A stretch of 64,000 nt of DNA from Candidatus Hermodarchaeota archaeon (GTDB lineage Archaea > Asgardarchaeota > Lokiarchaeia > Sigyniarchaeales > SOKP01), in NCBI GenBank assembly GCA_048885535.1, contig JBHLLO010000008.1:6403-70402 (forward strand). Reading direction: 5' to 3'. Below the pieces are notes generated by a model. It was not told the origin of the DNA and searched no databases. It saw only the letters and a program-made list of their open reading frames with translations. Position 1 is the first letter of the stretch. Each line of letters begins with the position of its first letter. The translations under genes were made by a program, and so were the position numbers. Shown here in pieces: positions 1,606 to 60,445 of this stretch.

Positions 1606-2451
1606 ATGCATTTAATCAAATTTGAGGATTTTTTCTTTCGCTATAAAGGAAATGAAGAATATGCTTTAAATAACATTAACTTAAAAATAGGAAGGAATAA
1701 ATTCATATTACTTGCTGGTGAGACAGGTTCGGGAAAAACATCTTTAATAAGATGCATGAATGGATTAATTCCTCAATTCTATGCTGGATACTATAAGGGA
1801 TCAGTTGAAGTGGTAGGAAAAGATACTATAACTACTTCTATTGCAGATTTATCTACTGAAGTAGGGCTTGTATTTCAAAACCCTGAAAATCAATTGATTG
1901 CAATGAATATTGAGCATGAAATTGCTTTTGGTATGGAAAATATAGGTCTAAAAAAAGAACTTATTAAGGAAAAGCTAGAAAATTTAATGCAGCTAACAGA
2001 AATAACTAGAATTGCTGATAGAGCTCCTTTTGAAATAAGTGGCGGAGAACAACAAAGAGTTGCTATTGCCTCTATTTTAGCTTTAGACCCTAAAATTATA
2101 GTTTTGGATGAACCTACTGCAAATTTAGATCCTTTATTCGCACAAAAAATAATTATGCTCCTAAAAAAGATCCAGGAGGAAAAGGAGCTTACAATAATTA
2201 TAAGTGAACATAGAATGGATTTAGTTATTCCAATCGTAGATGAGATTATTTTAATGAAACAAGGGAAAATTTTAGCACACGATAAAAAAGAAAATATCGT
2301 TAATAGTAAAGAATTTGAAACTTTGGAAATAAATAAACCAGTTATTTATTCAATCTTTAATCAATTAAAAAGAGAAAATTTAATTCATACAAATTTGCCT
2401 ACTTCGATCAATGATGCAGTATCAATATTAAAAGAACATAATTTAGGGTGA
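1606..2451 (+). CDS. ecfA: ECF transporter ATPase component (EcfA/CbiO-like)
   Basis: Walker A GETGSGKTS, ABC signature SGGEQQRV, Walker B IVLDEPT. It lies in tandem with a second ATPase and EcfT. Confidence 0.85.
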   Translation: MHLIKFEDFFFRYKGNEEYALNNINLKIGRNKFILLAGETGSGKTSLIRCMNGLIPQFYAGYYKGSVEVVGKDTITTSIADLSTEVGLVFQNPENQLIAMNIEHEIAFGMENIGLKKELIKEKLENLMQLTEITRIADRAPFEISGGEQQRVAIASILALDPKIIVLDEPTANLDPLFAQKIIMLLKKIQEEKELTIIISEHRMDLVIPIVDEIILMKQGKILAHDKKENIVNSKEFETLEINKPVIYSIFNQLKRENLIHTNLPTSINDAVSILKEHNLG

Positions 2452-3323
2452 TGATGTTTTCTAAATCTTTTCCAATTATATCCATTAAAAATGTTGATTA
2501 TATTTATCCTAATGGGACTCATGCTTTAAGAAATGTTTCTTTAAATATCAATAAAGGTGAATTGATAGCAATTATGGGTCAAAATGGAGCAGGAAAAACT
2601 ACTCTGATAAGAATGCTAAATGGCTTGCTACGACCTTCTAAAGGAAGTGTTTATATTGAAAAGAAGGATATTTCCTCAAAAACTATAGCGGATTTGTCCA
2701 AAGTTGTTGGAATAGTCTTTCAAAATCCCTCTCATCAATTATTCTCTAATACTATTGATGATGAAATAAATTTTTCCTTAAAAAATCTTGAGTTAAATCC
2801 GGAACAAATAGAAATGACTAAAGACACTATACTTAAAAGTTTTGATTTGTTGAAATATCAAAATCGATCTCCATTAAATTTATCCGGTGGAGAATCAAAA
2901 AAATTAGCAATTGCTTCAATAATATGTAGGGATCCAAGTATACTGGTTTTTGATGAACCAACACTTGGACAAGATGCTAAGGAGATCAAGTTTTTTATTG
3001 ATTTAATTAACACTGAGCTTGATAGAAGTAAAACTATTATAATAGTAACTCACAATGTTGAATTTACTATGGAACATATCCCTAGAACCATTTTAATGAC
3101 TCAAGGCAAAATTCTTGCTGATGGTCCAACTGAGAAAATATTATCAAATGAATTATTAATCAAAGAATCGTCATTGATAATTCCTCAACTTTTCCAATTT
3201 AAAAATGCTTTAACTGAGATTAATCTGAATATTCCTGAAGAAATTTATAGAGAATCGCAACTTATCAATTTTCTTGATAATTATTTAAGAAAAATTAAAA
3301 AGGTAAAAGGAGATGTTAGATAA
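2448..3323 (+). CDS. ecfA: ECF transporter ATPase component 2 (EcfA')
   Basis: Walker A GQNGAGKTT, signature LSGGESKKLA, Walker B LVFDEPT. The start overlaps the upstream stop. Confidence 0.85.
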   Translation: MMMFSKSFPIISIKNVDYIYPNGTHALRNVSLNINKGELIAIMGQNGAGKTTLIRMLNGLLRPSKGSVYIEKKDISSKTIADLSKVVGIVFQNPSHQLFSNTIDDEINFSLKNLELNPEQIEMTKDTILKSFDLLKYQNRSPLNLSGGESKKLAIASIICRDPSILVFDEPTLGQDAKEIKFFIDLINTELDRSKTIIIVTHNVEFTMEHIPRTILMTQGKILADGPTEKILSNELLIKESSLIIPQLFQFKNALTEINLNIPEEIYRESQLINFLDNYLRKIKKVKGDVR

Positions 3324-4100
3324 ATGTCATTAGAATTTCTTAATGCTTTTAAATTCATAAAAAAGCAATCCCTTCTACATAAATTAGATCCACGATCCAA
3401 ATTCTTATTCGCTATAATTTATACAGTAGTTGCCTTATTATTTACAGAAATTATCCCTTTATTTCTTATTTTCTTGAGTTTACTTCCTTTCATTTTAATA
3501 GGAAGATTTTTTAAACAGTGGATAAAGAGTGTACGAGGCTTGTCGTATCTCTATTTGATAATAATTATTTTAAACACCTTGTTCATATCAGATAAAGGAT
3601 TTTCATTTGCAATCTCAATGCTTTTAAGAGTTACAATAATGATATCGGCTTTCTCCATATTCTTTCTCAGTGTAGATCCTAATGATCTGGCACTTTCATT
3701 TATTTCAATGAAGGTTCCTTATGAATTTGCTTTTTCCTTTTCTCTTGCTTTTAGATTTGTACCAACAATAGCAATGGAAGCACAAAACATTATTGATGCT
3801 CAGCAAAGTAGAGGATATGAAATGCAAAAGAAAGGAATAATTTCTCAAATTAAAAATCTTTTCCCCCTTTTAATCCCTTTGATTATTAATTCAATAAAGA
3901 GAGCTTTTAATGTTGCAGAAGCACTAGAATCTAGAGCTTTTGGTAGTAAAAAAAAGCGAAGTTATTATTTCAAAATTAAATTCACTTATAAAGATTGGAT
4001 TTTTTCCATCTATCTAATAATCTTCTTAATTACATTTATATTTATTAGAATTGAATTCATCGTAATGCCATTTTGGTTTAATTGGAGTTTTCCTGTATGA
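3324..4100 (+). CDS. ecfT: ECF transporter transmembrane component (EcfT/CbiQ family)
   Basis: Polytopic membrane protein directly after the two EcfA genes. It has the conserved Ala-Arg-Gly-like region (QQSRGYE). No S-component gene is adjacent. Confidence 0.8.
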   Translation: MSLEFLNAFKFIKKQSLLHKLDPRSKFLFAIIYTVVALLFTEIIPLFLIFLSLLPFILIGRFFKQWIKSVRGLSYLYLIIIILNTLFISDKGFSFAISMLLRVTIMISAFSIFFLSVDPNDLALSFISMKVPYEFAFSFSLAFRFVPTIAMEAQNIIDAQQSRGYEMQKKGIISQIKNLFPLLIPLIINSIKRAFNVAEALESRAFGSKKKRSYYFKIKFTYKDWIFSIYLIIFLITFIFIRIEFIVMPFWFNWSFPV

Positions 4101-4744
4101 TGATAAAAGCATTCAATATAAATGAAAAAAATTACTATATAGGATTAAGCCAGTTTAAAATAAATCTAGATTTTAAATTTGAGCAATTCTTTAATATTTT
4201 TGAAAAAATCCAGCATAAGTACAATAAATTAGTTTTACAACTTTTTAACGATAGGTATGTTTTAAATAGTGAGCATATATTTAACGCCTGTTATTATCTA
4301 GAGAAAGTATTTTTAAATAATCAAAATATCTCAAATAAAAAAAATATTGAATTTTTATTATACTTGGCTGCTAATAGACAGATTAAAATAGCGCTAGAAG
4401 ATTTTGGGATTAATAGTGAAATTTTTAAAAAGGGTTTTATTAATTTGTGTGTAATTTCATCAGAAAGTAGTTTTCAATCATTAAATCTTGAATTTGAAAG
4501 AATTTTTAACATTAATAGAATAGATTTTGTTCTAGATAATTACTCCCAAAAAAAATATGAAGAGATTAAATTATATTTTGATTTTCCTGATAAACAAATT
4601 GAGACTGTTTTGGCCTCATATCATAAAAAAATAGATCTTAAAGAAATTCAAGATTCAGACCTTCCTAATCTTTATTTAGCATTAAATGATTTGATTTGTG
4701 AAAAAATGGCTCTACTTTCTTTAGAAAAAGTCAGTTTGGATTAG
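4097..4744 (+). CDS. KEOPS subunit Cgi121-like protein
   Basis: By-eye similarity to archaeal Cgi121: an internal ...LLYLAANRQIKIALEDFGI...NLCVISSE block and a C-terminal ...EKMALLSLEKV helix. ATG 4097 overlaps the ecfT stop (ATGA). The ORF track starts at TTG 4082. Confidence 0.5.
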   Translation: MMIKAFNINEKNYYIGLSQFKINLDFKFEQFFNIFEKIQHKYNKLVLQLFNDRYVLNSEHIFNACYYLEKVFLNNQNISNKKNIEFLLYLAANRQIKIALEDFGINSEIFKKGFINLCVISSESSFQSLNLEFERIFNINRIDFVLDNYSQKKYEEIKLYFDFPDKQIETVLASYHKKIDLKEIQDSDLPNLYLALNDLICEKMALLSLEKVSLD

Positions 4745-5264
4745 TCATTTTATTCCTTGTCTTTATTATATCATTTGGTTTTAAGAAGGAAATTCCTGTG
4801 AATTTTCCTAACACCTCTATCCTGACAATTTTATCTGGATTCTCTAAATTAACCTTATTGTCAATTATTCTAGCTATACTTTCAATGAGGTTATCCCGAT
4901 CAATAATCTCATTCTTTCTGCGATTTAATTTTATCATAAATGATTCTTGATTATTGATATATTCTTTCTGATGCTTTTGAATAATTGCTTTTATTGTTCT
5001 TGCATTAGTTTGACATACATAATCAATTGGTACAATCTTAAGGATATACTGAAAGAAATTAGCATTTTGGTTCATGAGTTTCTTAATTTTTGAAACAACC
5101 TTTCTATGGTTTAATGTTGTAGCCACAGCTATTAATCCTTGAAAATCCAAACTTGAAAATATTGAATAGTGATCTCCACACATTAATAGAATAAACCACA
5201 TTTCTGCTCTTGCGTTATCTTCATTATAACGTGATGTAGAAACTAAAAGATTGAAGTTATTCAA
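4731..5264 (-). CDS. THUMP-domain RNA-binding protein (Tan1-like)
   Basis: 177 aa. The N-terminal NLLVSTSRYNE...AEMWF and C-terminal ...IVRIEVLGKFTGISFL pattern is typical of small archaeal THUMP proteins. Confidence 0.45.
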   Translation of the reverse strand: MNNFNLLVSTSRYNEDNARAEMWFILLMCGDHYSIFSSLDFQGLIAVATTLNHRKVVSKIKKLMNQNANFFQYILKIVPIDYVCQTNARTIKAIIQKHQKEYINNQESFMIKLNRRKNEIIDRDNLIESIARIIDNKVNLENPDKIVRIEVLGKFTGISFLKPNDIIKTRNKMTNPN

Positions 5265-5274
5265 TTTAAAATAC

Positions 5275-5946
5275 CTAATATTGAAATTCTTTCTTTATTA
5301 TGTCTTGAACCTCCTCTTCAGTGAGGGTTCCTAGGCGTAAAAATTCTGGTTTGTTGGATGTACATTTAATTATAGTCGTTGCTAATTTTGATTTTAATTT
5401 ACCACCATCAATTATTAGATCTATTGGGCTTAAAAATTTTTTTGCTATTTCATCTCCACTAGTACAAGGGGGCTCCCCTGAGTAATTCGCTGAAGTTCCT
5501 ATAATTCCTCCAAAATATCCTCTTGTTTTTAAAATTTGAAGTATATTTACTATAATCTCATTTTTAGGAATTCTTAGACCAATTGTGTCTTTGAACGCTG
5601 TAACTTCCGCAGGAATAATACTTGGTTCCTTTTTTCTTAATACTAAAGTTAATAAACCAGGCCAAAATTTCTTTGCTAAGAATTTTGCTAAATCATTAAA
5701 TTCCGCAATCTTTTCAGCCTCTTTAAAATCCAATACAAGTAATATCAAACCTTTTGAACGATCTCGAAACTTTATATTAAAAATCCGATTAACAGCCTCA
5801 AGATTTTTTGGATCAGCCCCGATTCCGTAAACAGAATCGGTTGGAAAGGCGATAATCTTTCCCTCAATAATATTATCAACTGCAATTTCAAGATAAGGCT
5901 TAATCTCTTGTAAATTTTTCCCTCTAACCTTGACTAAAAATCCCAT
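5275..5946 (-). CDS. tsaC: L-threonylcarbamoyladenylate synthase, short YrdC/TsaC-type
   Basis: YrdC-domain motifs (IIAFPTDSVYGIGADP, GLRIP, TSANYSGEPP). At 223 aa it lacks the long Sua5 C-terminal domain. Confidence 0.85.
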   Translation of the reverse strand: MGFLVKVRGKNLQEIKPYLEIAVDNIIEGKIIAFPTDSVYGIGADPKNLEAVNRIFNIKFRDRSKGLILLVLDFKEAEKIAEFNDLAKFLAKKFWPGLLTLVLRKKEPSIIPAEVTAFKDTIGLRIPKNEIIVNILQILKTRGYFGGIIGTSANYSGEPPCTSGDEIAKKFLSPIDLIIDGGKLKSKLATTIIKCTSNKPEFLRLGTLTEEEVQDIIKKEFQY

Positions 5947-9339: not shown

Positions 9340-9903
9340 ATGGCTAATAAGAAGAGAAATAACAAGATAATTCATTCTTTTAAATGCCCTTCATGTCAAG
9401 AGGGAATAATTGACATTGATAGCAATATTTATGATCTCCCAGATGGAGATAAGATGCTTATATTAAAATTTGAATGTAATACTTGCACATTTCATAAAAA
9501 TGATATAATTCCGCTAACAACAAACACGGAACCAGGTATTATGATTTTGCGAGTTAAAAATGAAGAAGACCTCAAATCTAAAGTTTATCGCTCTCCAACT
9601 GGTAAGTTAGAAATCCCAGAATTAGAATTGGTAGTGGAGCCTGGTCCAAGAGCAGATTTCTACTATACAAATGTAGAGGGTATCCTCTTGAGATTTGAGA
9701 ATGCTGTTTCAATGTATAAAAATAATCTTAATAAGGATGACCCCGAATTTAAGGAAATTACCCTGATATTAAAAGATCTAAAAAATGCACTTGATGGTAA
9801 ATTAAATTTCACTTTGAAAATTACTGACAATGGAGGAGGTAGTTATATTATCCCAATTAATAAATCACATTATAGTTTTGAGAAATTAAAGATATCAAAT
9901 TAA
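9340..9903 (+). CDS. ZPR1-type zinc-finger protein
   Basis: N-terminal CPSC...CNTC zinc ribbon followed by a beta-rich ZPR1-like domain. The size is typical of archaeal ZPR1 homologues. Confidence 0.55.
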   Translation: MANKKRNNKIIHSFKCPSCQEGIIDIDSNIYDLPDGDKMLILKFECNTCTFHKNDIIPLTTNTEPGIMILRVKNEEDLKSKVYRSPTGKLEIPELELVVEPGPRADFYYTNVEGILLRFENAVSMYKNNLNKDDPEFKEITLILKDLKNALDGKLNFTLKITDNGGGSYIIPINKSHYSFEKLKISN

Positions 9904-10011
9904 ACTCAAAGCTTAAATAATGTAAGGATTTCTCTAGATTTTTTTAATATAGTTTAAATAGTTATCAACAATTTTTTAACCAAAAATAGTTTAATTAATT
10001 AGTTAAAATAA

Positions 10012-10017
10012 GGTGAT
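10012..10017 (+). promoter_or_regulatory. Shine-Dalgarno-like site for the ATG at 10023
   Basis: GGTGAT lies 5 nt upstream of ATG 10023. No comparable site precedes the TTG at 10081 used by the ORF track. Confidence 0.5.
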
Positions 10018-10022
10018 CTTAT

Positions 10023-46388: not shown

Positions 46389-47840
46389 ATGAAAATGATT
46401 GATGAATTAAAAGTATTTGATGATAGCTTAATAGAAAGACTTTCAAATTTAGCAAAAAATGAAATTGAATACTGGGATATTAGGATTACACTTCAAAACG
46501 GAACAACATTAGATTTTACAAATCAAAGAAGCAAAGAAATTAGTTCATATGAAACTGTAGAATGTGGAATAAGAACATTTTTAAGTGGTGGATGGGGATT
46601 TTGTGTACCAAAAACATTAAGTAGAGAAAGTATAATAAACAGTTTTTCAAAGGCGATCAAGCTTGCAAAGAAATCTAATCTACTTTGTAGAAATAAGTTT
46701 AATATAGCTGAAACAAAACCCATTCAAAATCATTTTAAAATTAATAGTAAAAAAAAATTAGAAAACATTGATATAATTGATAAAATTGAGATTGTAAAAT
46801 ATCATGAAGAAATCGCTTCTAATTACTCTAAAGAAGTAAAAAATAGTCATACAATATATTTAGATGGTTATTCTAAACATCTATTTATAAATTCTTTTGA
46901 TAGTAAGATATACCAGGATTTTGAAATATTACGTATCTTTTCAGCTGTCTATGCTCAAAAGAAAGGTATAATACAAAATGCTATGAATTCAGTTGGAGGA
47001 GTTGGGGGATTTGAAATTGTAGAAACTGAAGAAGCTGAGAATGTGAGTCTGAAATCAGCAAAACAAGCAATTGCGCTTTTAGACGCTAAATCGCCCGTAG
47101 GTGGTAAATTTAATGTGATAATGGATTCCAAGTTAACAGGAACCTTTATTCATGAAGCATTTGGTCATGCTTGTGAGGCTGATCTCGTTTTAAACAAGGA
47201 AAGTATCTTAGAAGATAAAATTGGAAAAACAGTAGCAATTGAAGATGTAAACGTAATTGATGATCCCACTATAGGTCAAGGAAAAGCATTTAATTTACCA
47301 TATGAATTATATGGAAGTTATTTTGTAGATGATGAGGGTGTCCCTGCACAAAAAACTTCAATAATTGAAAACGGTGTCCTTCGAAACTTCTTACATAATA
47401 TTGAAACCGCCTCAAGGATGTCTGTAATGCCCAATGGTCATGGAAGAGCTAATTCCAGTACAGCAAATCCTCAAGTGAGGATGGGTTTCACATATTTAGA
47501 ACCTAAAGATTGGGAATTGGATGAGATGATTGAAGATACAAAAGTGGGGATGTTATGTGAGGATTTCCAATATGGATATACTGATGCTACAACAGGAAAT
47601 TTTCAATTTAAATGTAAATTTTCTTATAAAATTGAAAATGGGGATAAAAAAGAATTAATGAGAGATGTATCACTTTCTGGAATGACTTTAGAAGTATTGA
47701 AAAAAATAAATGCTATAGGCAATAGAAAAACTTTTCATTATTCTGACGGAATATGCGGAAAAGGTGGTCAAGGTATAAGAGTATGTGATGGAGGGCCATA
47801 TATTAGAACTAAAGATATTATTGTTGGAGGACTTAATTAG
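46389..47840 (+). CDS. tldD: TldD-family metalloprotease
   Basis: HExxxH (IHEAFGHACE), and GxC/GGxY-type C-terminal blocks. It is paired with PmbA. Confidence 0.85.
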   Translation: MKMIDELKVFDDSLIERLSNLAKNEIEYWDIRITLQNGTTLDFTNQRSKEISSYETVECGIRTFLSGGWGFCVPKTLSRESIINSFSKAIKLAKKSNLLCRNKFNIAETKPIQNHFKINSKKKLENIDIIDKIEIVKYHEEIASNYSKEVKNSHTIYLDGYSKHLFINSFDSKIYQDFEILRIFSAVYAQKKGIIQNAMNSVGGVGGFEIVETEEAENVSLKSAKQAIALLDAKSPVGGKFNVIMDSKLTGTFIHEAFGHACEADLVLNKESILEDKIGKTVAIEDVNVIDDPTIGQGKAFNLPYELYGSYFVDDEGVPAQKTSIIENGVLRNFLHNIETASRMSVMPNGHGRANSSTANPQVRMGFTYLEPKDWELDEMIEDTKVGMLCEDFQYGYTDATTGNFQFKCKFSYKIENGDKKELMRDVSLSGMTLEVLKKINAIGNRKTFHYSDGICGKGGQGIRVCDGGPYIRTKDIIVGGLN

Positions 47841-49211
47841 ATGGATAATACTTCAAATATATTCAACCTTGCTTCAACAGGATTGAAATTTGCAGAAAAA
47901 AGTGGTGGGATGCTCGCTGAAATATATTTCTCGCTTAATGATTACATTAATATAGATATAGAAGAAAACTCGATAAAAAACAATGAAATTGGCAGTGATT
48001 ACGGTGTTGGAATTCGTTTGATAAATCAAAAAGGTTCATTAGGATTTGCTTTTACCAACAGATTAGATCAAAAATATATTGAGAAAATGACTAAAAATGC
48101 AGCTAGCATGATGAGAGTTGGAACAGAGGATCCCGATTTTAAGAATTTACCTCCTAGATATGAAAATTATAACCAAGTTAAAGGGCTGTATGATAAAAAT
48201 ATAAAAAATCTACCAATTGAGGATTCAATCAAATATGTTGCAAATCTAATTAAGATCTGCGATGAGGACGAACTTGCAGTATCTCAGTCTGGGAATTTTT
48301 CATCTAGCTATAATAAAACATTCATTTTCAATACTAATGGATTAGAAGTAAAATCTAAAACTACAGTTTGCTCTATCTCTTCACACGTTATTGTAAAGGA
48401 TCAATTAACCAAAGATACCTCCTTTGGTTTTGAAAATCAGATCAAAAGGAATCTAAAGGAAATAAATAGCGAGCAAGTTATTAAAGCAGCTTTAAATAGT
48501 GCAAAACGAAATTTAAATAGGAAAAAAATAAAAAGTACTAAGGTACCGATAATTCTTACTCCTAAAGGAGTAATTAGTTTTATTTTAAGACCATTAGCTT
48601 CAGCTATTAATGCTGAAACTTTCCAATATAAAAGGAGTTTCCTTGTTGGAAAGAGAGGTGAATCCATTGGACCATCATTTCTAAATATTGAGGATAACGC
48701 ATTAGTTGATGGAGCTGTAGGATCTGCTACTTTTGATGGAGAAGGAGTGCCTTGTAAAAACAAGAAAGTAATCGAAAAAGGAATATTCTTGAAATCTGGA
48801 TTATTACACAATACTTACACTGCCAATAAAGAGGGTGTTGAGAGCTCAGGAAATGCAGCACGTAATTCATATGGTTCCCTGCCAAGTATCGGAATTTCTA
48901 ACCTTATTCTTCAAGCAGGAGAATCAACAAGAAAAGAAATGATTGGGGATGTCAAAGAAGGTATTTTTCTGGATTATACTGGTGACAGACCTAATATTTC
49001 TACAGGAGATTTTTCTGGATTAATCCTACAAGGAAATTTAATAAAAAATGGTGAAATTTCAGATCCACTCAATGAGACAATGTTTGGCATTAATTTGTTA
49101 GATCTATTTAACCGTATTGAAGAAGTCTCTAAAGAGGTAAAAATTTATGGTCCCTATCAAGCTCCTTATGTGAAAATTAAGGATGTACAAATTATTGGAA
49201 GTGCTATTTAA
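47841..49211 (+). CDS. pmbA: PmbA/TldE-family protein
   Basis: TldD/PmbA fold without HExxxH. It starts 1 nt after the tldD stop. Confidence 0.8.
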   Translation: MDNTSNIFNLASTGLKFAEKSGGMLAEIYFSLNDYINIDIEENSIKNNEIGSDYGVGIRLINQKGSLGFAFTNRLDQKYIEKMTKNAASMMRVGTEDPDFKNLPPRYENYNQVKGLYDKNIKNLPIEDSIKYVANLIKICDEDELAVSQSGNFSSSYNKTFIFNTNGLEVKSKTTVCSISSHVIVKDQLTKDTSFGFENQIKRNLKEINSEQVIKAALNSAKRNLNRKKIKSTKVPIILTPKGVISFILRPLASAINAETFQYKRSFLVGKRGESIGPSFLNIEDNALVDGAVGSATFDGEGVPCKNKKVIEKGIFLKSGLLHNTYTANKEGVESSGNAARNSYGSLPSIGISNLILQAGESTRKEMIGDVKEGIFLDYTGDRPNISTGDFSGLILQGNLIKNGEISDPLNETMFGINLLDLFNRIEEVSKEVKIYGPYQAPYVKIKDVQIIGSAI

Positions 49212-50783: not shown

Positions 50784-50926
50784 ATATTACAACCTTGAGA
50801 GAAAGCTCATTGTGTCTTATTTTTGTATTTAAAATTATTATTTTCTTTAAGATTTTTGCTTTCCTAAAAAACTAGTTGAATTATTAAATAACAAATACTC
50901 AGAAATAGCTATCCTTGGAATATATT

Positions 50927-51517
50927 TTATAGGGTACGGTTTCCACAATGTTGACAAAATTTTAATTCTAATGGATAAAGTCTACCACAATTTGAACACT
51001 TTTTTAATGAACTTTTTAGAATCTCTCTTCCAAGCATCTCAAATACTTGTTCAACATTCTCTCCAGTTTTTGAAGAAGTACCAATAATATCGCCTTTAAA
51101 GTTATATTTATAATGAATTTTTTCAGCATCTTCTTTATTTATTTCTCTTTGATCTTCTAAGTCAAGTTTAGCTTCCACGAGTAGTTTTGTTTTAGGAGAG
51201 TTAGGAACAGAACTAATCACTTTTATCCAATCATGTAGATCCGCCAAAGATTCTCTGTTGGTTATGTCATATAAGATTAAAGCTCCTGATGCACCAGAAA
51301 CATAAGAAGGTAAAAGGAGTCTGAATTTTTTCTCTCCAGCGAAATCCCATATGTTCAAAAGAATCTCATTATCATCAACTATTACCTTTTTAGTTTCAAA
51401 ATCTACTCCAATTGTAGATAATGTAGAAGTATCAAATTTTCCAGTAGCATAACGCCTAATGAGAGATGTTTTACCTACATTTTTAGCTCCAGCCACAACA
51501 ACTTTAAACTTTATCAT
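50927..51517 (-). CDS. Rab-like small GTPase with C-terminal zinc ribbon
   Basis: G1 GAKNVGKTS, switch I/RabF1-like TIGVDF, G3 WDFAGEKKF, YDITNRES, G4 variant EAKLD, G5 SSKTG. The C-terminus has CSNC...CQHC instead of prenylatable Cys. Confidence 0.85.
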   Translation of the reverse strand: MIKFKVVVAGAKNVGKTSLIRRYATGKFDTSTLSTIGVDFETKKVIVDDNEILLNIWDFAGEKKFRLLLPSYVSGASGALILYDITNRESLADLHDWIKVISSVPNSPKTKLLVEAKLDLEDQREINKEDAEKIHYKYNFKGDIIGTSSKTGENVEQVFEMLGREILKSSLKKCSNCGRLYPLELKFCQHCGNRTL

Positions 51518-51640
51518 TTCTCAATATTACCTTTAAATAAATTGAATCTGAGTTTATTTCAATATAATATTATTAATATGAATAAATAATTTTATGTTTT
51601 CTATTTAATTGATTTTAAGAGCATTAATTAAATAATTTGT

Positions 51641-51711: not shown

Positions 51712-52191
51712 ATGAGTCAGGCATCGTGGAAGTATCTAATAAATGGTAGTTATGTAATGATGGCTTCAATATTCCTACCAATTACTTATCACTCCCTGCG
51801 CGATGTTTATCATGAATTTCATGCTTTTTTTTGGATATTTGGATTGATTATCCATGTAGATGGTGCGATAGATATGGTTTGGTTTTTTAAAATCTCTGGT
51901 GGATATTGGCTTTTACCGATAACTACAATACTAATTATTATCCTTGGTTCGATTATGATTATAGTTTTAGCAATAATGGTTAAGAAAGGGAAAAAAGTTA
52001 AAAGATGGATATTTACATTAATAGTTACTCTTGAAGCTTCAATTATATTGATAAATTTTGGGTTTTATGAGTTTCTTAGAAATGCATTTTTTGGATATTT
52101 GTCATTTTTATTTGGGTTAATCTTATTAGTTATTGGCAACAAGAAGTATTATAAAGAATCCCGTAATTCAAGAAATATTTTGGAATCATGA
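51712..52191 (+). CDS. paralogous small membrane protein 1 (about 5 TM)
   Basis: The N-terminal SQASWKYLINGSYVMMASIFLPI and C-terminal FFGYLSFLFGLILLVIGN are shared with the third copy. Confidence 0.6.
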   Translation: MSQASWKYLINGSYVMMASIFLPITYHSLRDVYHEFHAFFWIFGLIIHVDGAIDMVWFFKISGGYWLLPITTILIIILGSIMIIVLAIMVKKGKKVKRWIFTLIVTLEASIILINFGFYEFLRNAFFGYLSFLFGLILLVIGNKKYYKESRNSRNILES

Positions 52192-52643
52192 CTCAAGAAC
52201 CTTGGAAAAATCTGATAAACTTTAGTTATGTAATGTTGGTGTCCCTATTAATTCCATCTCATTTTACTATTCTTGAAGCCACCTTTGGATATGGGCATTC
52301 AACTGTTGGTGTACTTCTTTGGATACACGGTTTGTCCTACTCAGGTTATGGGATAGGTTGGATTTGGCAAACAACTTATTCTCGTTATATAGGGGTTCAA
52401 CTTATATTTTCTCTGTATCTAATAATTATAATCTCAGTCAGCACACACATTCTTGCTCGAATAATCAAGAAAAAGGAGAAACTTAGAAAGAAAACGAGTT
52501 ATGCGATAGTTTATTCAATTATTTTCCTTCAGAGTATACTACTGTTCCTTAACTTAATTATGCTTCCCTTCTTCCCATTTTTTGGATATCTCTTATGGAC
52601 ATTTGCTCTTTTGTTATTAATTAAGACAGTAAAAACTTTGTAG
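52188..52643 (+). CDS. paralogous small membrane protein 2
   Basis: TQEPWKNLINFSYVMLVSLLIP... The start ATGA overlaps the stop of copy 1. This is the most divergent copy. Confidence 0.6.
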   Translation: MTQEPWKNLINFSYVMLVSLLIPSHFTILEATFGYGHSTVGVLLWIHGLSYSGYGIGWIWQTTYSRYIGVQLIFSLYLIIIISVSTHILARIIKKKEKLRKKTSYAIVYSIIFLQSILLFLNLIMLPFFPFFGYLLWTFALLLLIKTVKTL

Positions 52644-52652
52644 ATTATTTGC

Positions 52653-52723
52653 ATAATTTCAAAATAAATTTAAGTTAAAAAATGATTTATCATCTTAAGA
52701 AATCCTAAAAAAAGTGAGTGAAT
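52653..52723 (+). repeat. conserved upstream region, copy 2
   Basis: See 51641-51711. Confidence 0.6.
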
Positions 52724-53194
52724 ATGACTCAAGAGTCATGGAAATATCTAATAAATGGTAGTTATGTGATGTTGGCTTCTTTATTTTTACCGATTGGTTA
52801 TAGTTCGTTATGTTGTCCTACAACTCATATTTTCATATGGGTATTTTTCTGGATCTGGGTAGATAATACAATAAGGGTTCGTTGGTTTTTTGAAATACAA
52901 ATCATCCCAAATTATTGGTACTCTTGGTTTTATTGGATTTTGCCATTAATTTCGATTCTAGTTATTCTAGTTGGTTCGATTTCTATCATAATTTCAGCAA
53001 GAATGATAAGAAAAGGGAAAAAAGCCAGTAAAGGGATATTTACATTAATAATTTTTCTTCAATTCGCAATTTTATTGATAAACTTAATTGCCTATTTTGG
53101 TCAGGTATTTTTTGGATATTTATCATTTTTATTTGCGCTAATCTTACTAATTAAAGGTAATAGAATGTTTCTTACAGAAACTAAAGCATTATAA
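52724..53194 (+). CDS. paralogous small membrane protein 3
   Basis: MTQESWKYLINGSYVMLASLFLPI... ATG 52724 matches the paralog N-termini better than GTG 52718. Confidence 0.6.
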   Translation: MTQESWKYLINGSYVMLASLFLPIGYSSLCCPTTHIFIWVFFWIWVDNTIRVRWFFEIQIIPNYWYSWFYWILPLISILVILVGSISIIISARMIRKGKKASKGIFTLIIFLQFAILLINLIAYFGQVFFGYLSFLFALILLIKGNRMFLTETKAL

Positions 53195-57358: not shown

Positions 57359-58798
57359 TTATGGAATTCTAGTCTTCTTCTCGTAGCGCATTCTACTTTC
57401 TTGGGATAATGGATTTTCGTTCAGGAAAATAAAGTTCAAGTTTTCTAAATTATGAATATCACTAATACTAAACTCTGAAATGCGATTATTTTCTAAAAAA
57501 AGAATTATTAAACTTTTAAGATTATCCAATCCTTCTAATTTAGTTATAAAGTTTTTGTCTAAAAACAACTCTTGGAGTTTAGAAAGAGTGTTTAATCCTT
57601 CAATTTTTTTAATTTTATTGTTAGAGAGCTCTAATTTTGTTAAGTTTGTTAAATTATGCAAGTTTTCAATTCTCTCAATTAAATTGTTCGAAAGGTTTAA
57701 TGTCCTTAATTCTTTTAAATTGATCAAACTGCGAATTTGTTTGATAGAATTATCATTTAGGCGAAGTGATATTAGATTTATAAGATACTCAAATTGAGAC
57801 ATTTCCTCTATTTTATTATCAGATAAATTCAAACTCTTTAAATTATATAATTTTTTTAGATTATCAACTTTTATAATAGTGTTATAACTAAGATTTAAAA
57901 ACTCAAGATTCGTTAAATCTTCTAAATTTTCTATTTTACTGATTATATTATGGTCTAAAGAAAGCTTTTTTATATTTTTTATTCTCAAGTTTTCAATTTT
58001 TTTAATTCGATTCATTGATAACTTCAATTCTTCCAGCTGCTCCAAATTTTCTAAATTTTCAATTTTTTGGATTTGATTCTCTGATAAATCAAGAACTTTT
58101 AGACTTTTTAAATGATTTATGTTTTCTATTTTAAAGATTTCATTTTTTCGAAGTCTTAAATGTTCTAATCTTGTTAATCTGCTGAAAGCAGGGATCTTTG
58201 CTATCTCTTTAAGATTGAAACCCTCACAATTTAAAAGAATTATCATTCCATCTTTTAATACTACATTATAACCGCATTCATTCCTATAAAAAAGAAAAAG
58301 AATTATATTAACACAAATTTCTAATTGTAATTCTGGAATTGAAGAATTATATTCATCATTAAAAATCTCTTCAGGAAAATCCTTTCTTAAGGCTTTAAAA
58401 TGTTTTTTTATTGCTTTTTTTAAAAACTCCTTAATTATTTTGTGAGACTTAATAGATCCCAGTGAGTTTAATATCTCTAACGCCGCAAATTTTTGCTCAA
58501 TATTCTTTGCATTAAATAGAGTGAATTCCATAAGTGGAATTAATCTTGAATGATAATGATATCCTTCTTGCAAGAACTTGCCGGCTAATAAACAGATTTC
58601 AATATCTTCATCTGATAAAAAAAGTTGTTCAAAAAACTTGAAATTTTTCCCATTATCCAGCTGACCATAAACTTGTAAAGCATGCTTCCTCAGATAAGGG
58701 TCATTAGAATTATTTATCCAACCTTTAAGAAGAGTATATCCCTCTTTTAATCCTATCTCATTGATATTTTCCTTAATATAATAAGGATTTAAATCCAT
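57359..58798 (-). CDS. leucine-rich-repeat protein (about 12 SDS22-like 22-residue LRRs) with N-terminal HEAT-like region
   Basis: Tandem units fit LxxLxxLxLsxNxIxkIENLxx from about residue 208 to the C-terminus. Confidence 0.85.
   Translation of the reverse strand: MDLNPYYIKENINEIGLKEGYTLLKGWINNSNDPYLRKHALQVYGQLDNGKNFKFFEQLFLSDEDIEICLLAGKFLQEGYHYHSRLIPLMEFTLFNAKNIEQKFAALEILNSLGSIKSHKIIKEFLKKAIKKHFKALRKDFPEEIFNDEYNSSIPELQLEICVNIILFLFYRNECGYNVVLKDGMIILLNCEGFNLKEIAKIPAFSRLTRLEHLRLRKNEIFKIENINHLKSLKVLDLSENQIQKIENLENLEQLEELKLSMNRIKKIENLRIKNIKKLSLDHNIISKIENLEDLTNLEFLNLSYNTIIKVDNLKKLYNLKSLNLSDNKIEEMSQFEYLINLISLRLNDNSIKQIRSLINLKELRTLNLSNNLIERIENLHNLTNLTKLELSNNKIKKIEGLNTLSKLQELFLDKNFITKLEGLDNLKSLIILFLENNRISEFSISDIHNLENLNFIFLNENPLSQESRMRYEKKTRIP
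57400..58177 (-). repeat. about 66-bp periodic coding repeats (LRR units)
   Basis: About 12 consecutive 22-codon units are visible in the translation. Confidence 0.8.
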
Positions 58799-59299: not shown

Positions 59300-60445
59300 A
59301 TGGCAGAAGAAGAGAGTTTTTTAAACGCAAAAGCCTTAGTTGTTGACAATGGTACAGGTATTTCCAAAAATGGTTTTGCCGGGGAAGATCAACCACGTTC
59401 AGTTTTTCCAACATTGATTGGATATCCTAAATATGAGTCCATAATGACTGATGTAGAGCATTACACTCGAGAATATTATATTGGAGAAGAAGCTATGCAA
59501 CTTAAGGGAGTGCTTAAATTAATGTTCCCTGTTGAGCATGGCATCATCGAAGATTGGACTGCTATGGAAAAAATCTGGCATTATACATTCTATACCGATC
59601 TGAGAATTGATCCTAGCGAACACCCAGTTCTCCTTACAGAAGCTCCATTAAATCCAAGACCAAATAGGGAAAAAATGGCTGAGATTATGTTTGAGACATT
59701 CAACGTGCCAGCCTTGTATGTAGCAATGCAAGCAGTACTTTCCCTTTATGCTTCTGGTCGTACTACTGGGTGTGTTATAGATATTGGTGATGGAGTTTCT
59801 CACGTCGTCCCAATTTTCGAAGGATTTGCTTTAAGTCATGCCATCCAAAGAATTGACTTAGCTGGTAGAGACATTACTACATATTTACAAAGATTACTCA
59901 GACAAAAGGGGTATTCATTCACCACTTCAGCAGAGAAAGAAATAGTTCGTGACATTAAAGAAAAACTCTGCTATGTAGCAATTGATCCTGAAAAGGAAAT
60001 GATGTTATCGAAGAAAGTGGCTGGAATGGAAAAAAGTTATATGCTTCCTGATGGAGAAACTATTAATGTGGGTGTTGAAAGATTCCTAGCACCTGAATGT
60101 TTCTTCAATCCATCTGTAATTGGAAAGGAATTGGAACCTTTAGATGATGTAATCGTAGGTTCTATTTCAGAATGCGATGTTGATCTTAGACGAGACCTCT
60201 ATAGCAACATTGTACTTTCTGGTGGTTCAACAATGTTCCCAGGAATTAAAGAACGCTTAACTAAAGAAATCAAAGAACAAATTCCTGAGAGTGTTGATGT
60301 AAAAATTATTGCTCCACCAGAGCGTATGTATTCTGTTTGGATTGGTGGTTCGATTCTAAGCTCACTCAAGACATTCCACCGCATGTGGGTCACTCGTAGA
60401 GAATACAAAGAGATGGGCCCCCAAGTAATTCACCGATGCTTCTAA
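59300..60445 (+). CDS. actin (Asgard 'lokiactin'-type, close to eukaryotic actin)
   Basis: It is colinear with eukaryotic actin over its full length. Long identical runs include [39 protein letters not shown] and [17 protein letters not shown]. It ends ...VIHRCF. Confidence 0.95.

Follow-up and report, generated by a model that had tools for sequence, protein, structure and literature searches.

In a 64-kb stretch of DNA from contig JBHLLO010000008.1 (hereafter the window, meaning all 64,000 nucleotides that were analysed), a complete gene on the minus strand, at positions 50927 to 51517, encodes a small GTPase that joins a Rab-like G domain of the Asgard Ras-like (RasL) type to a predicted C-terminal zinc ribbon. 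The gene was recognized from the listing of open reading frames (ORFs), its match to the Pfam Ras model and its homologues, and the ORF listing and the sequence confirm a reading frame of 196 amino acids (aa) with an ATG start and a stop codon at 50927-50929. On balance, we favour the view that the protein is a RasL guanine-nucleotide switch in which the ribbon serves for rigid, constitutive docking and in which the chemistry departs from that of Ras and Rab through Glu62, Lys12 and a G4 motif without Asn.

Asgard archaea encode dozens of Ras-superfamily GTPases, and a targeting mechanism has so far been proposed only for Arf-related Asgard proteins with amphipathic helices. The protein described here is ordinary as a GTPase, and it bears directly on how Asgard GTPases are localized. 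Its family offers a concrete, testable handle, namely a well-conserved gene in a fixed locus with a zinc module at the position of the Rab membrane tail, and knowing the partner of the ribbon would indicate where in the cell a conserved Asgard GTPase acts.

The G domain and its altered motifs

The Pfam Ras model (PF00071) matches residues 5-167 with E=1.3e-42 and 145.5 bits against a cut-off of 21.6, and TIGR00231 matches with E=2.1e-20 (73.1 bits, cut-off 42.5), whereas the matches to the Arf model (1.6e-10) and the Gtr1/RagA model (0.013) are both far weaker than that to the Ras model. The best 60 sequence matches in the PDB were Rabs without exception (Rab8A, E=1.9e-32). An AlphaFold2 (AF2) model built with a 51-sequence alignment (alignment A3) reached a predicted local distance difference test (pLDDT) score of 89.9 and a predicted template modelling (pTM) score of 0.84, superseding an earlier model from a shallow alignment in which the P-loop and switch I had pLDDT values of 41-50. 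The best 50 Foldseek matches of the newer model were likewise all Rabs, mostly in the GTP form, with a root-mean-square deviation (rmsd) of 1.4-1.6 Å over about 168 columns, and the model superposes on GTP-form Rab3A, Rab8, Rab1b and Rab43. Both sets of matches support an earlier note on this DNA, which had described a Rab-like small GTPase. By these comparisons the protein is a member of the Asgard RasL group, of the Rab/Ras type and not of the Arf, Rag or MglA type. The word Rab stands for resemblance rather than membership, because published phylogenies put Asgard RasL proteins outside the Rab clade, with none of them specifically sister to the Rabs (bioRxiv 10.1101/2024.02.28.582541). Database records name the homologues 'GTP-binding protein' or 'Rab family GTPase', under labels such as Promethearchaeota, Lokiarchaeia and similar Asgard names, and the source of the window is an Asgard archaeon of the Lokiarchaeia type.

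The G domain comprises residues 1-170 (51008-51517; this and the other features of the gene lie on the minus strand), as delimited by the Pfam Ras match and the AF2 model. The P-loop (G1) is GAKNVGKT, residues 10-17 (51467-51490), with Lys at the position of Gly12 of Ras. Switch I contributes Thr35 (G2) within the RabF1-like TIGVDF, residues 35-40 (51398-51415), opposite STIGIDF of Rab8A, and switch II (G3) is WDFAGEKKF, residues 57-65 (51323-51349), opposite WDTAGQERF, in which the catalytic Gln of the Rab-type DTAGQE is replaced by Glu62 (DFAGEK). G4 reads AKLD in place of NKxD, residues 116-119 (51161-51172), opposite NKCD of Rab8A, and keeps the Lys and the Asp while the Asn is gone. G5 is TSSK, the equivalent of the SAK motif, residues 147-150 (51068-51079), opposite TSAK. 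Two longer strings, YVSGASGALILYDIT and LLVEAKLDLED, lie at residues 72-86 and 112-122, and every motif string quoted in the earlier note was found in this ORF. That note had named two differences from eukaryotic Rabs, the G4 change and the ribbon; both are seen, and the list was incomplete, as it missed Glu62 and Lys12.

The Rab family motifs RabF1 to RabF5 are defined as IGVDF, KLQIW, RFrsiT, YYRGA and LVYDIT. In the alignment with Rab8A, RabF1 is exact (IGVDF) and RabF5 (ILYDIT) agrees in four of six residues plus conservative changes; RabF2 (LLNIW) and RabF4 (YVSGA) each agree in three of five residues and RabF3 (KFRLLL) in two of six.

The reading of AKLD as G4, already made in the earlier note, agrees with the alignment to Rab8A, which sets 'veakld' of the query opposite 'lgnkcd', with the Pfam alignment and with the family invariants, all of which fix residues 116-119; an alternative G4 elsewhere in the protein was rejected on the same grounds. 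Within the close clade of 151 sequences, residue 116 is Ala in 129, Thr in 9, Ser in 7, His in 4 and Asn in 2. A survey of 150 representatives (P0121-P0270), aligned to the query and divided by switch II type, found the G4 Asn in 59 of 63 Rab-type DTAGQ domains and in 1 of 23 ribbon-less relatives with DF[A/G]GE, where the rest have Gly (7), Ser (5), Thr (3), Ala (2), Cys (2), Ile (2) or Met (1); these relatives keep the G4 Lys in 18 of 23 cases and the Asp in 19 of 23. Because of this difference (1/23 vs 59/63), loss of the G4 Asn and the change from Gln to Glu can be said to co-vary across a large set of relatives. By these alignments the Asn-to-Ala change is a clade-wide trait and not a distinguishing mark of the ribbon GTPase; the earlier note had treated it as a special feature, but the position is non-Asn in 22 of the 23 ribbon-less relatives. 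What sets the family apart in the same comparison is the ribbon, and mostly Lys at the Ras Gly12 position, where the ribbon-less DFxGE relatives mostly have Gly (11 of 23).

The Lys and Asp of G4 read the guanine base, and in Ras the Asn links the P-loop to G4/G5; Gly12 and Gln61 of Ras are critical for the hydrolysis that GTPase-activating proteins (GAPs) stimulate. Septins bind guanine nucleotides with an invariant AKAD as G4 (PMC5101219). Because the G4 Lys and Asp are kept and septins bind guanine with AKAD, the altered nucleotide specificity that had been proposed for this protein is unlikely, and weaker nucleotide binding or faster exchange is a possible outcome of the G4 change. That DFxGE and a G4 lacking Asn occur together in a large clade of archaeal relatives suggests a shared, non-Ras chemistry of hydrolysis and exchange.

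The C-terminal ribbon and conservation of the family

The predicted C4 zinc ribbon, CSNCGRLYPLELKFCQHCG, occupies residues 174-192 (50942-50998) and has the spacing CxxC-x10-CxxC; an x13 spacing had been given before, but ten residues lie between the second and third Cys. The ribbon starts four residues past helix alpha5 and takes the place of the prenylated hypervariable tail of Rabs, as the earlier note had proposed: the protein ends ...CQHCGNRTL, the C-terminal hypervariable region is absent, and there is no CC, CXC or CAAX end. A prenylation motif was rejected for the last Cys, which lies six residues from the end and within a CxxC.

The CxxC-x10-CxxC pattern is present in 120 of the best 120 homologues and in all 151 close homologues (71-100% identity), and the ribbon is kept in every diverged subfamily at 43-67% identity, the diverged members having been collected by exhaustively searching the representatives of clusters at 50% identity and by a profile search. 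In all, more than 180 homologues show no variation in the four Cys. The conservation of the Cys pairs, which the earlier note had proposed as a check, was therefore seen in all orthologues and diverged members examined, and a lineage accident was rejected because the pairs do not vary even in relatives as distant as 43% identity.

Among 128 distinct tails, the linker is constant in length and conserved in sequence (I-L-K-N-S-L-K-K-C, with S-L-K-K joining alpha5 to the ribbon), and the tail has an average net charge of +4. The ribbon consensus is CPNCGKLYPLELKFCQYCG, with Y181, P182, E184, K186, F187, Q189 and G192 as conserved residues other than Cys. A conserved linker of fixed length together with conserved residues on the ribbon surface speaks for a specific interface and against a loose tether. 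In the AF2 model, the ribbon has pLDDT values of 85-88 and two short strands (171-173 and 180-182), and residues 171-196 were covered by none of the best 50 Foldseek Rab matches. Compared alone with the PDB, the ribbon gave ribosomal protein bL32 as its best match (E=0.0017), and non-significant matches to DUF35, NOB1, eL40, Nop10 and aIF2-gamma (E of 0.1-0.6 for the last four, 0.55 for aIF2-gamma); such short ribbon matches are driven largely by the Cys pattern. Pfam and NCBIfam gave weak matches to the Nop10 and NOB1 ribbons, and several orthologues carry precomputed DZR, DUF7575 or Zn_Ribbon_1 matches.

Two other proteins with a G domain and a Cys-rich end were seen. P0211 (394 aa) has an N-terminal G domain, a middle region of about 200 aa and a different C-terminal CxxC-x10-CxxC, and in P0217 (235 aa) TNLD stands where G4 is expected and the Cys-rich tail is longer. 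To judge from these sequences, a G domain may have been combined with a zinc module on more than one occasion.

The protein search yielded 1440 homologues at E<1e-5, the best of them 94% identical. The best 120 of the 1440 are 183-203 aa long and 75-94% identical; WDFAGE is found in 119 of them and GAKNVGKT in 108, and their G4 has the form E-[A/S/T/H]-K-x-D, with Asn in none. Residues T35-F40 are invariant in alignment A1, and alignment A3 of the ribbon family shows no variation at W57, D58, F59, G61 and E62 and almost none at Lys12. Invariants of the whole family include K16, D58, G61, E62, K117, D119, S148, K150 and the four Cys, with T35 nearly invariant. A scan of GTDB species genomes identified 223 with a relative, of which the best 80, from one broad lineage, were used for synteny; all of these show an Asgard gene order. 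Across these 80 loci the GTPase is 74-94% identical, and the neighbouring genes show identities of 62-87% (Hef), 56-84% (TldD) and 75-88% (epimerase). By this measure the GTPase is conserved no less well than its neighbours and appears to be under strong purifying selection.

A neighbour-joining (NJ) tree was calculated from the G domain alone (84 sequences, 164 columns). In this tree, 20 of 21 ribbon proteins formed one clade with one ribbon-less intruder, and the remaining ribbon protein, P0148, whose G4 is a canonical NKRD and whose sequence contains a large insert, fell just outside. The smallest clade holding all ribbon proteins had at most four extras in about 60 of 100 bootstrap replicates, and the close clade of the window protein had a support of 93/100. 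In this non-rigorous tree, the ribbon family grouped with prokaryote-type DFxGE sequences, apart from the sequences with DTAGQE and prenylated tails. Two subfamilies were distinguished: subfamily A, to which the window protein belongs, has mostly A/S/T-KxD and WDFAGE, and subfamily B, around P0127 and P0131, has mostly TKxD and WDFGGE and is 44-52% identical to the window protein.

Gene neighbourhood and transcription

In 78-79 of the 80 loci, the genes follow each other in the order Hef, GTPase, a sugar dehydratase/epimerase of the short-chain dehydrogenase/reductase (SDR) type and DUF1616, after which comes a convergent TldD/PmbA pair. This subfamily A order is complete at 65% identity of the GTPase (P0300), and at 51-55% identity (P0128, P0291) the TldD pair persists with or without the epimerase. 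In the window, the TldD/PmbA metalloprotease tandem lies at 46389-49211 on the plus strand, convergent with the DUF1616 gene; kept at 51-55% identity (L086, L088), it is the most persistent neighbour of subfamily A.

Subfamily B, whose loci come from metagenome assemblies or a metagenome-assembled genome (MAG) outside the A-type set, always adjoins a gene for a hydrolase of 270-277 aa with a metallo-beta-lactamase (MBL) fold (Lactamase_B/ODP). This was seen in six distinct loci (L085:7618-8451, L089:6229-7041, L090:6948-7769, L091:6616-7443, L093:3576-4397 and L096:749-1576), in five of which the two genes are arranged tail-to-tail with 5-25 nt between their stop codons; in L089 they are co-directional.

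The region upstream of the GTPase gene (51518-51560) is AT-rich in a window with a G+C content of about 30%, and contains a TATA-like element, TTTATTTAAA, about 16-25 nt before the ATG. Within the 143-nt spacer to the downstream epimerase gene (50784-50926) lie the T-run AGTTTTTTAGG, a putative terminator, and another TATA-like element, TTTTAAATA. A TATA-like element upstream and a T-run with a second such element in the spacer suggest that the GTPase is transcribed alone, and the gene is probably its own, monocistronic transcription unit. A sigma-70 scan of the upstream region was at background level, that model not being applicable to archaea. The NCBIfam names of the neighbours of both subfamilies are generic; because of these generic names, the differing neighbours of subfamilies A and B and the apparently monocistronic GTPase gene, we did not draw a partner from the gene neighbours.

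The ribbon GTPase is the only small GTPase in the 64-kb window. The window also encodes the archaeal helicase-nuclease Hef, which in most genomes directly adjoins the GTPase. Here, three tandem paralogous genes (51712-53194, plus strand; 159, 151 and 158 aa) lie between the two; their products are hydrophobic, probably multi-pass membrane proteins that match no Pfam family, and homologues at that position were found only in the closest relatives (L004/L005, L007 and L008). An actin gene (59300-60445, plus strand; 381 aa, Pfam Actin E=6e-133) and a gene for a leucine-rich-repeat protein of 479 aa (57359-58798, minus strand) lie within a few kb of the GTPase, and this pair is also located upstream of Hef in the related genomes L001 and L004.

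Among the other loci, L036 (DATKTW010000106.1) has the full Hef-GTPase-epimerase-DUF1616-TldD synteny with a GTPase 79% identical to that of the window, in a record titled 'Candidatus Nanopelagicaceae bacterium'; this MAG is probably mislabelled or mis-binned. In L088, a GPP34/GOLPH3-like gene stands between two genes for Rag/Arf-like GTPases of 399 and 404 aa (2337-5518), immediately upstream of the subfamily A ribbon GTPase, and in L091 another GPP34 gene (9428-10072) is located 3 kb from the subfamily B gene. The arrangement of GPP34 with Rag/Arf-like GTPases may represent a trafficking-like gene cluster.

Proposed mode of action and known systems

The G domain carries the elements expected for binding GTP or GDP with Mg2+, namely the P-loop GxxxxGKT, Thr35, DxxG, xKxD (Lys117 and Asp119) and S-x-K. 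This full set of elements, together with the GTP-form Rab fold of the model, suggests that the protein would cycle between GTP and GDP and present its conserved switch I and switch II surfaces to partners. The compact and basic ribbon, attached through the fixed four-residue linker, would act as a rigid, constitutive docking module and hold the switch on a macromolecular partner that is itself conserved, most likely a protein, with RNA or a membrane surface as alternatives. It would sit on the face of the G domain where Rabs are tethered and leave the switch face free. With Glu for Gln, Lys at the Gly12 position and Ala, Ser or Thr in G4, hydrolysis and exchange would proceed without arginine-finger catalysis of the Ras-GAP or TBC type, and a nucleotide affinity possibly below that of Rabs would lead to faster spontaneous exchange. 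Going further, the ribbon could be a dedicated, lipid-independent localization device that docks a near-universal Lokiarchaeial switch on a specific structure of the cell, for example a membrane protein complex, the cytoskeleton or a ribonucleoprotein, with the two subfamilies (window-type and MBL-neighbour type) corresponding to two sites, a proposal that we regard as rather doubtful; if true, ribbon docking would show how archaea related to eukaryotes solved GTPase targeting before prenylation.

Several points weigh against a docked and cycling switch. The binding of zinc and of nucleotide and the hydrolysis are predictions from the sequence. The Pfam matches of the ribbon lie below their cut-offs (DZR PF12773, 22.4 against 27.3, E=1.4e-4; DUF7575 PF24460, 19.9 against 28.5; Zn_Ribbon_1 PF13240, 19.2 against 25), and strict monophyly of all ribbon proteins was recovered in only 4 of 100 bootstrap replicates. 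No obvious GTPase partner is found among the Hef, epimerase/dehydratase, DUF1616, TldD/PmbA or MBL-fold neighbours. Finally, the combination of Lys12 and Glu62 could give a hydrolysis-dead protein that is constitutively bound to GTP.

A very unlikely alternative carries this last point to a non-cycling 'pseudo-switch', in which Lys12 and Glu62 abolish hydrolysis, or Ala116 abolishes tight binding, and the protein is a static scaffold subunit stabilized by zinc. The equivalents of G12 and Q61 of Ras are indeed substituted family-wide and the G4 Asn is absent, but strong purifying selection has kept all residues in contact with nucleotide and Mg unchanged (K16, T17, T35, D58, G61, K117, D119, S148 and K150), and the sharing of DF[A/G]GE and a non-Asn G4 by a large archaeal clade argues for a working alternative chemistry; Thor-Rab, a different Asgard RasL protein whose motifs were not compared, hydrolyses GTP at a rate like that of Rabs (PMC10933270). 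Two other readings concern the ribbon. It might be a peripheral membrane binder that replaces the prenyl anchor through basic and exposed aromatic or hydrophobic residues, and the tail charge of +4, the conserved Y181, P182, L183, L185, F187 and Y/H190, the position of the ribbon where Rabs have their membrane-targeting tail, and the co-directional sugar epimerase/dehydratase and DUF1616 membrane protein genes downstream in subfamily A are consistent with this. We consider it unlikely, since the ribbon has neither an amphipathic helix nor a polybasic run, its weak sequence neighbours are ribonucleoprotein ribbons and include no lipid binders, and the neighbouring envelope genes apparently have their own promoter and are missing from the subfamily B loci; moreover, C4 ribbons of this size (20 residues) and type (CPxCG...FCxxCG) are not known to bind lipids.

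Those same sequence neighbours, bL32 at E=0.0017 and the weaker NOB1, eL40, Nop10 and aIF2-gamma, suggest instead that the ribbon binds RNA or the ribosome, as in an assembly or translation-linked GTPase like RsgA/YjeQ, YqeH or aIF2-gamma. The weak Pfam and NCBIfam matches to Nop10 and NOB1, the basic tail, the housekeeping level of conservation and the synteny fixed beside Hef, with Rpb6 nearby, point in this direction. Against it, the short matches reflect the Cys pattern and all except one are non-significant, the G domain is Rab-like and not one of the TRAFAC ribosome-assembly classes, and no gene for a ribosomal protein or for RNA processing lies in an operon with the GTPase gene, all of which makes this function quite unlikely. 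We retain the reading as a guanine-nucleotide switch with a docking ribbon, and compare it below with known systems.

Among zinc-containing GTPases, RsgA/YjeQ has a C-terminal zinc finger and YqeH has an N-terminal zinc ribbon. In these proteins, as in aIF2-gamma with its zinc knuckle, a P-loop GTPase is likewise paired with a small zinc module of the Cys4 type, by which the enzyme docks on a macromolecule. They belong to other GTPase classes, circularly permuted or translation-factor, their ribbons are placed differently, and the likeness shown to the ribbon GTPase does not go beyond the Cys pattern. The likeness to septins is restricted to the AKAD form of the G4 motif; septins are filament-forming and of a different GTPase class. 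In haloarchaea, the vesiculation GTPase ArvA/OapA is paired with an operon-encoded Zn-ribbon protein, ArvC (PMC10927574). By description, ArvA/ArvC is alike in pairing an archaeal small GTPase with a zinc ribbon, but the ArvC ribbon is a separate protein (DUF2072) and not a fusion, and ArvA belongs to a different GTPase family that is rare in Asgard archaea (8 of 183 genomes; PMC10927574).

Compared with eukaryotic Rabs (Rab8A, Rab1B, Rab3A, Rab6 and Rab43; PDB 4LHW, 3NKV, 3RAB and 9LTQ), the G domain is closely similar, with an rmsd of 1.4-1.6 Å, a TM score of about 0.9 and 34-38% identity; G1, G2, G3 and G5 stand in equal places, RabF1 is exact and RabF5 near-exact. Unlike Rabs, the protein has a C4 ribbon and no hypervariable tail or prenylatable Cys, Glu for the catalytic Gln, Lys for the Ser of Rabs at the Gly12 position and Ala for the G4 Asn, and it matches RabF2-F4 (LLNIW, KFRLLL and YVSGA) in part. 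Asgard genomes lack the machinery of Rab prenylation, namely Rab escort protein (REP), geranylgeranyltransferase II (GGTase-II) and GDP dissociation inhibitor (GDI) (PMC4917890, PMC10933270). Evidence of membrane association of archaeal Rab-like proteins has not been seen (PMC4917890), and 'putative GGTase II sites' are noted by Dey et al. in two Loki GTPases (PMC4917890), which might be members of the ribbon family whose cysteines were misread as prenyl sites.

The closest relatives are the Asgard RasL proteins, for which the comparison set was Klinger 2016 (as cited), Surkont & Pereira-Leal 2016 (PMC4915359), Thor-Rab (PDB 7EZB; Tran 2024, PMC10933270) and Vargova 2024. The lineage and the class of G domain, which is already known, are shared, and DF[A/G]GE and a non-Asn xKxD are common to many ribbon-less relatives. 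The asCOG study placed two small-GTPase families among the Asgard core genes. In the literature searched, a zinc-ribbon-bearing Asgard RasL or Rab-like GTPase is undescribed, although asCOG annotation may already record the fusion, and archaeal Rab-like GTPases have been described as lacking C-terminal cysteines or an extension past the G domain (PMC4915359, PMC10933270). Unlike the described Asgard RasL proteins, the ribbon GTPase has a conserved C-terminal ribbon, mostly Lys12, and a subfamily A neighbourhood that is fixed in at least 80 species-level genomes.

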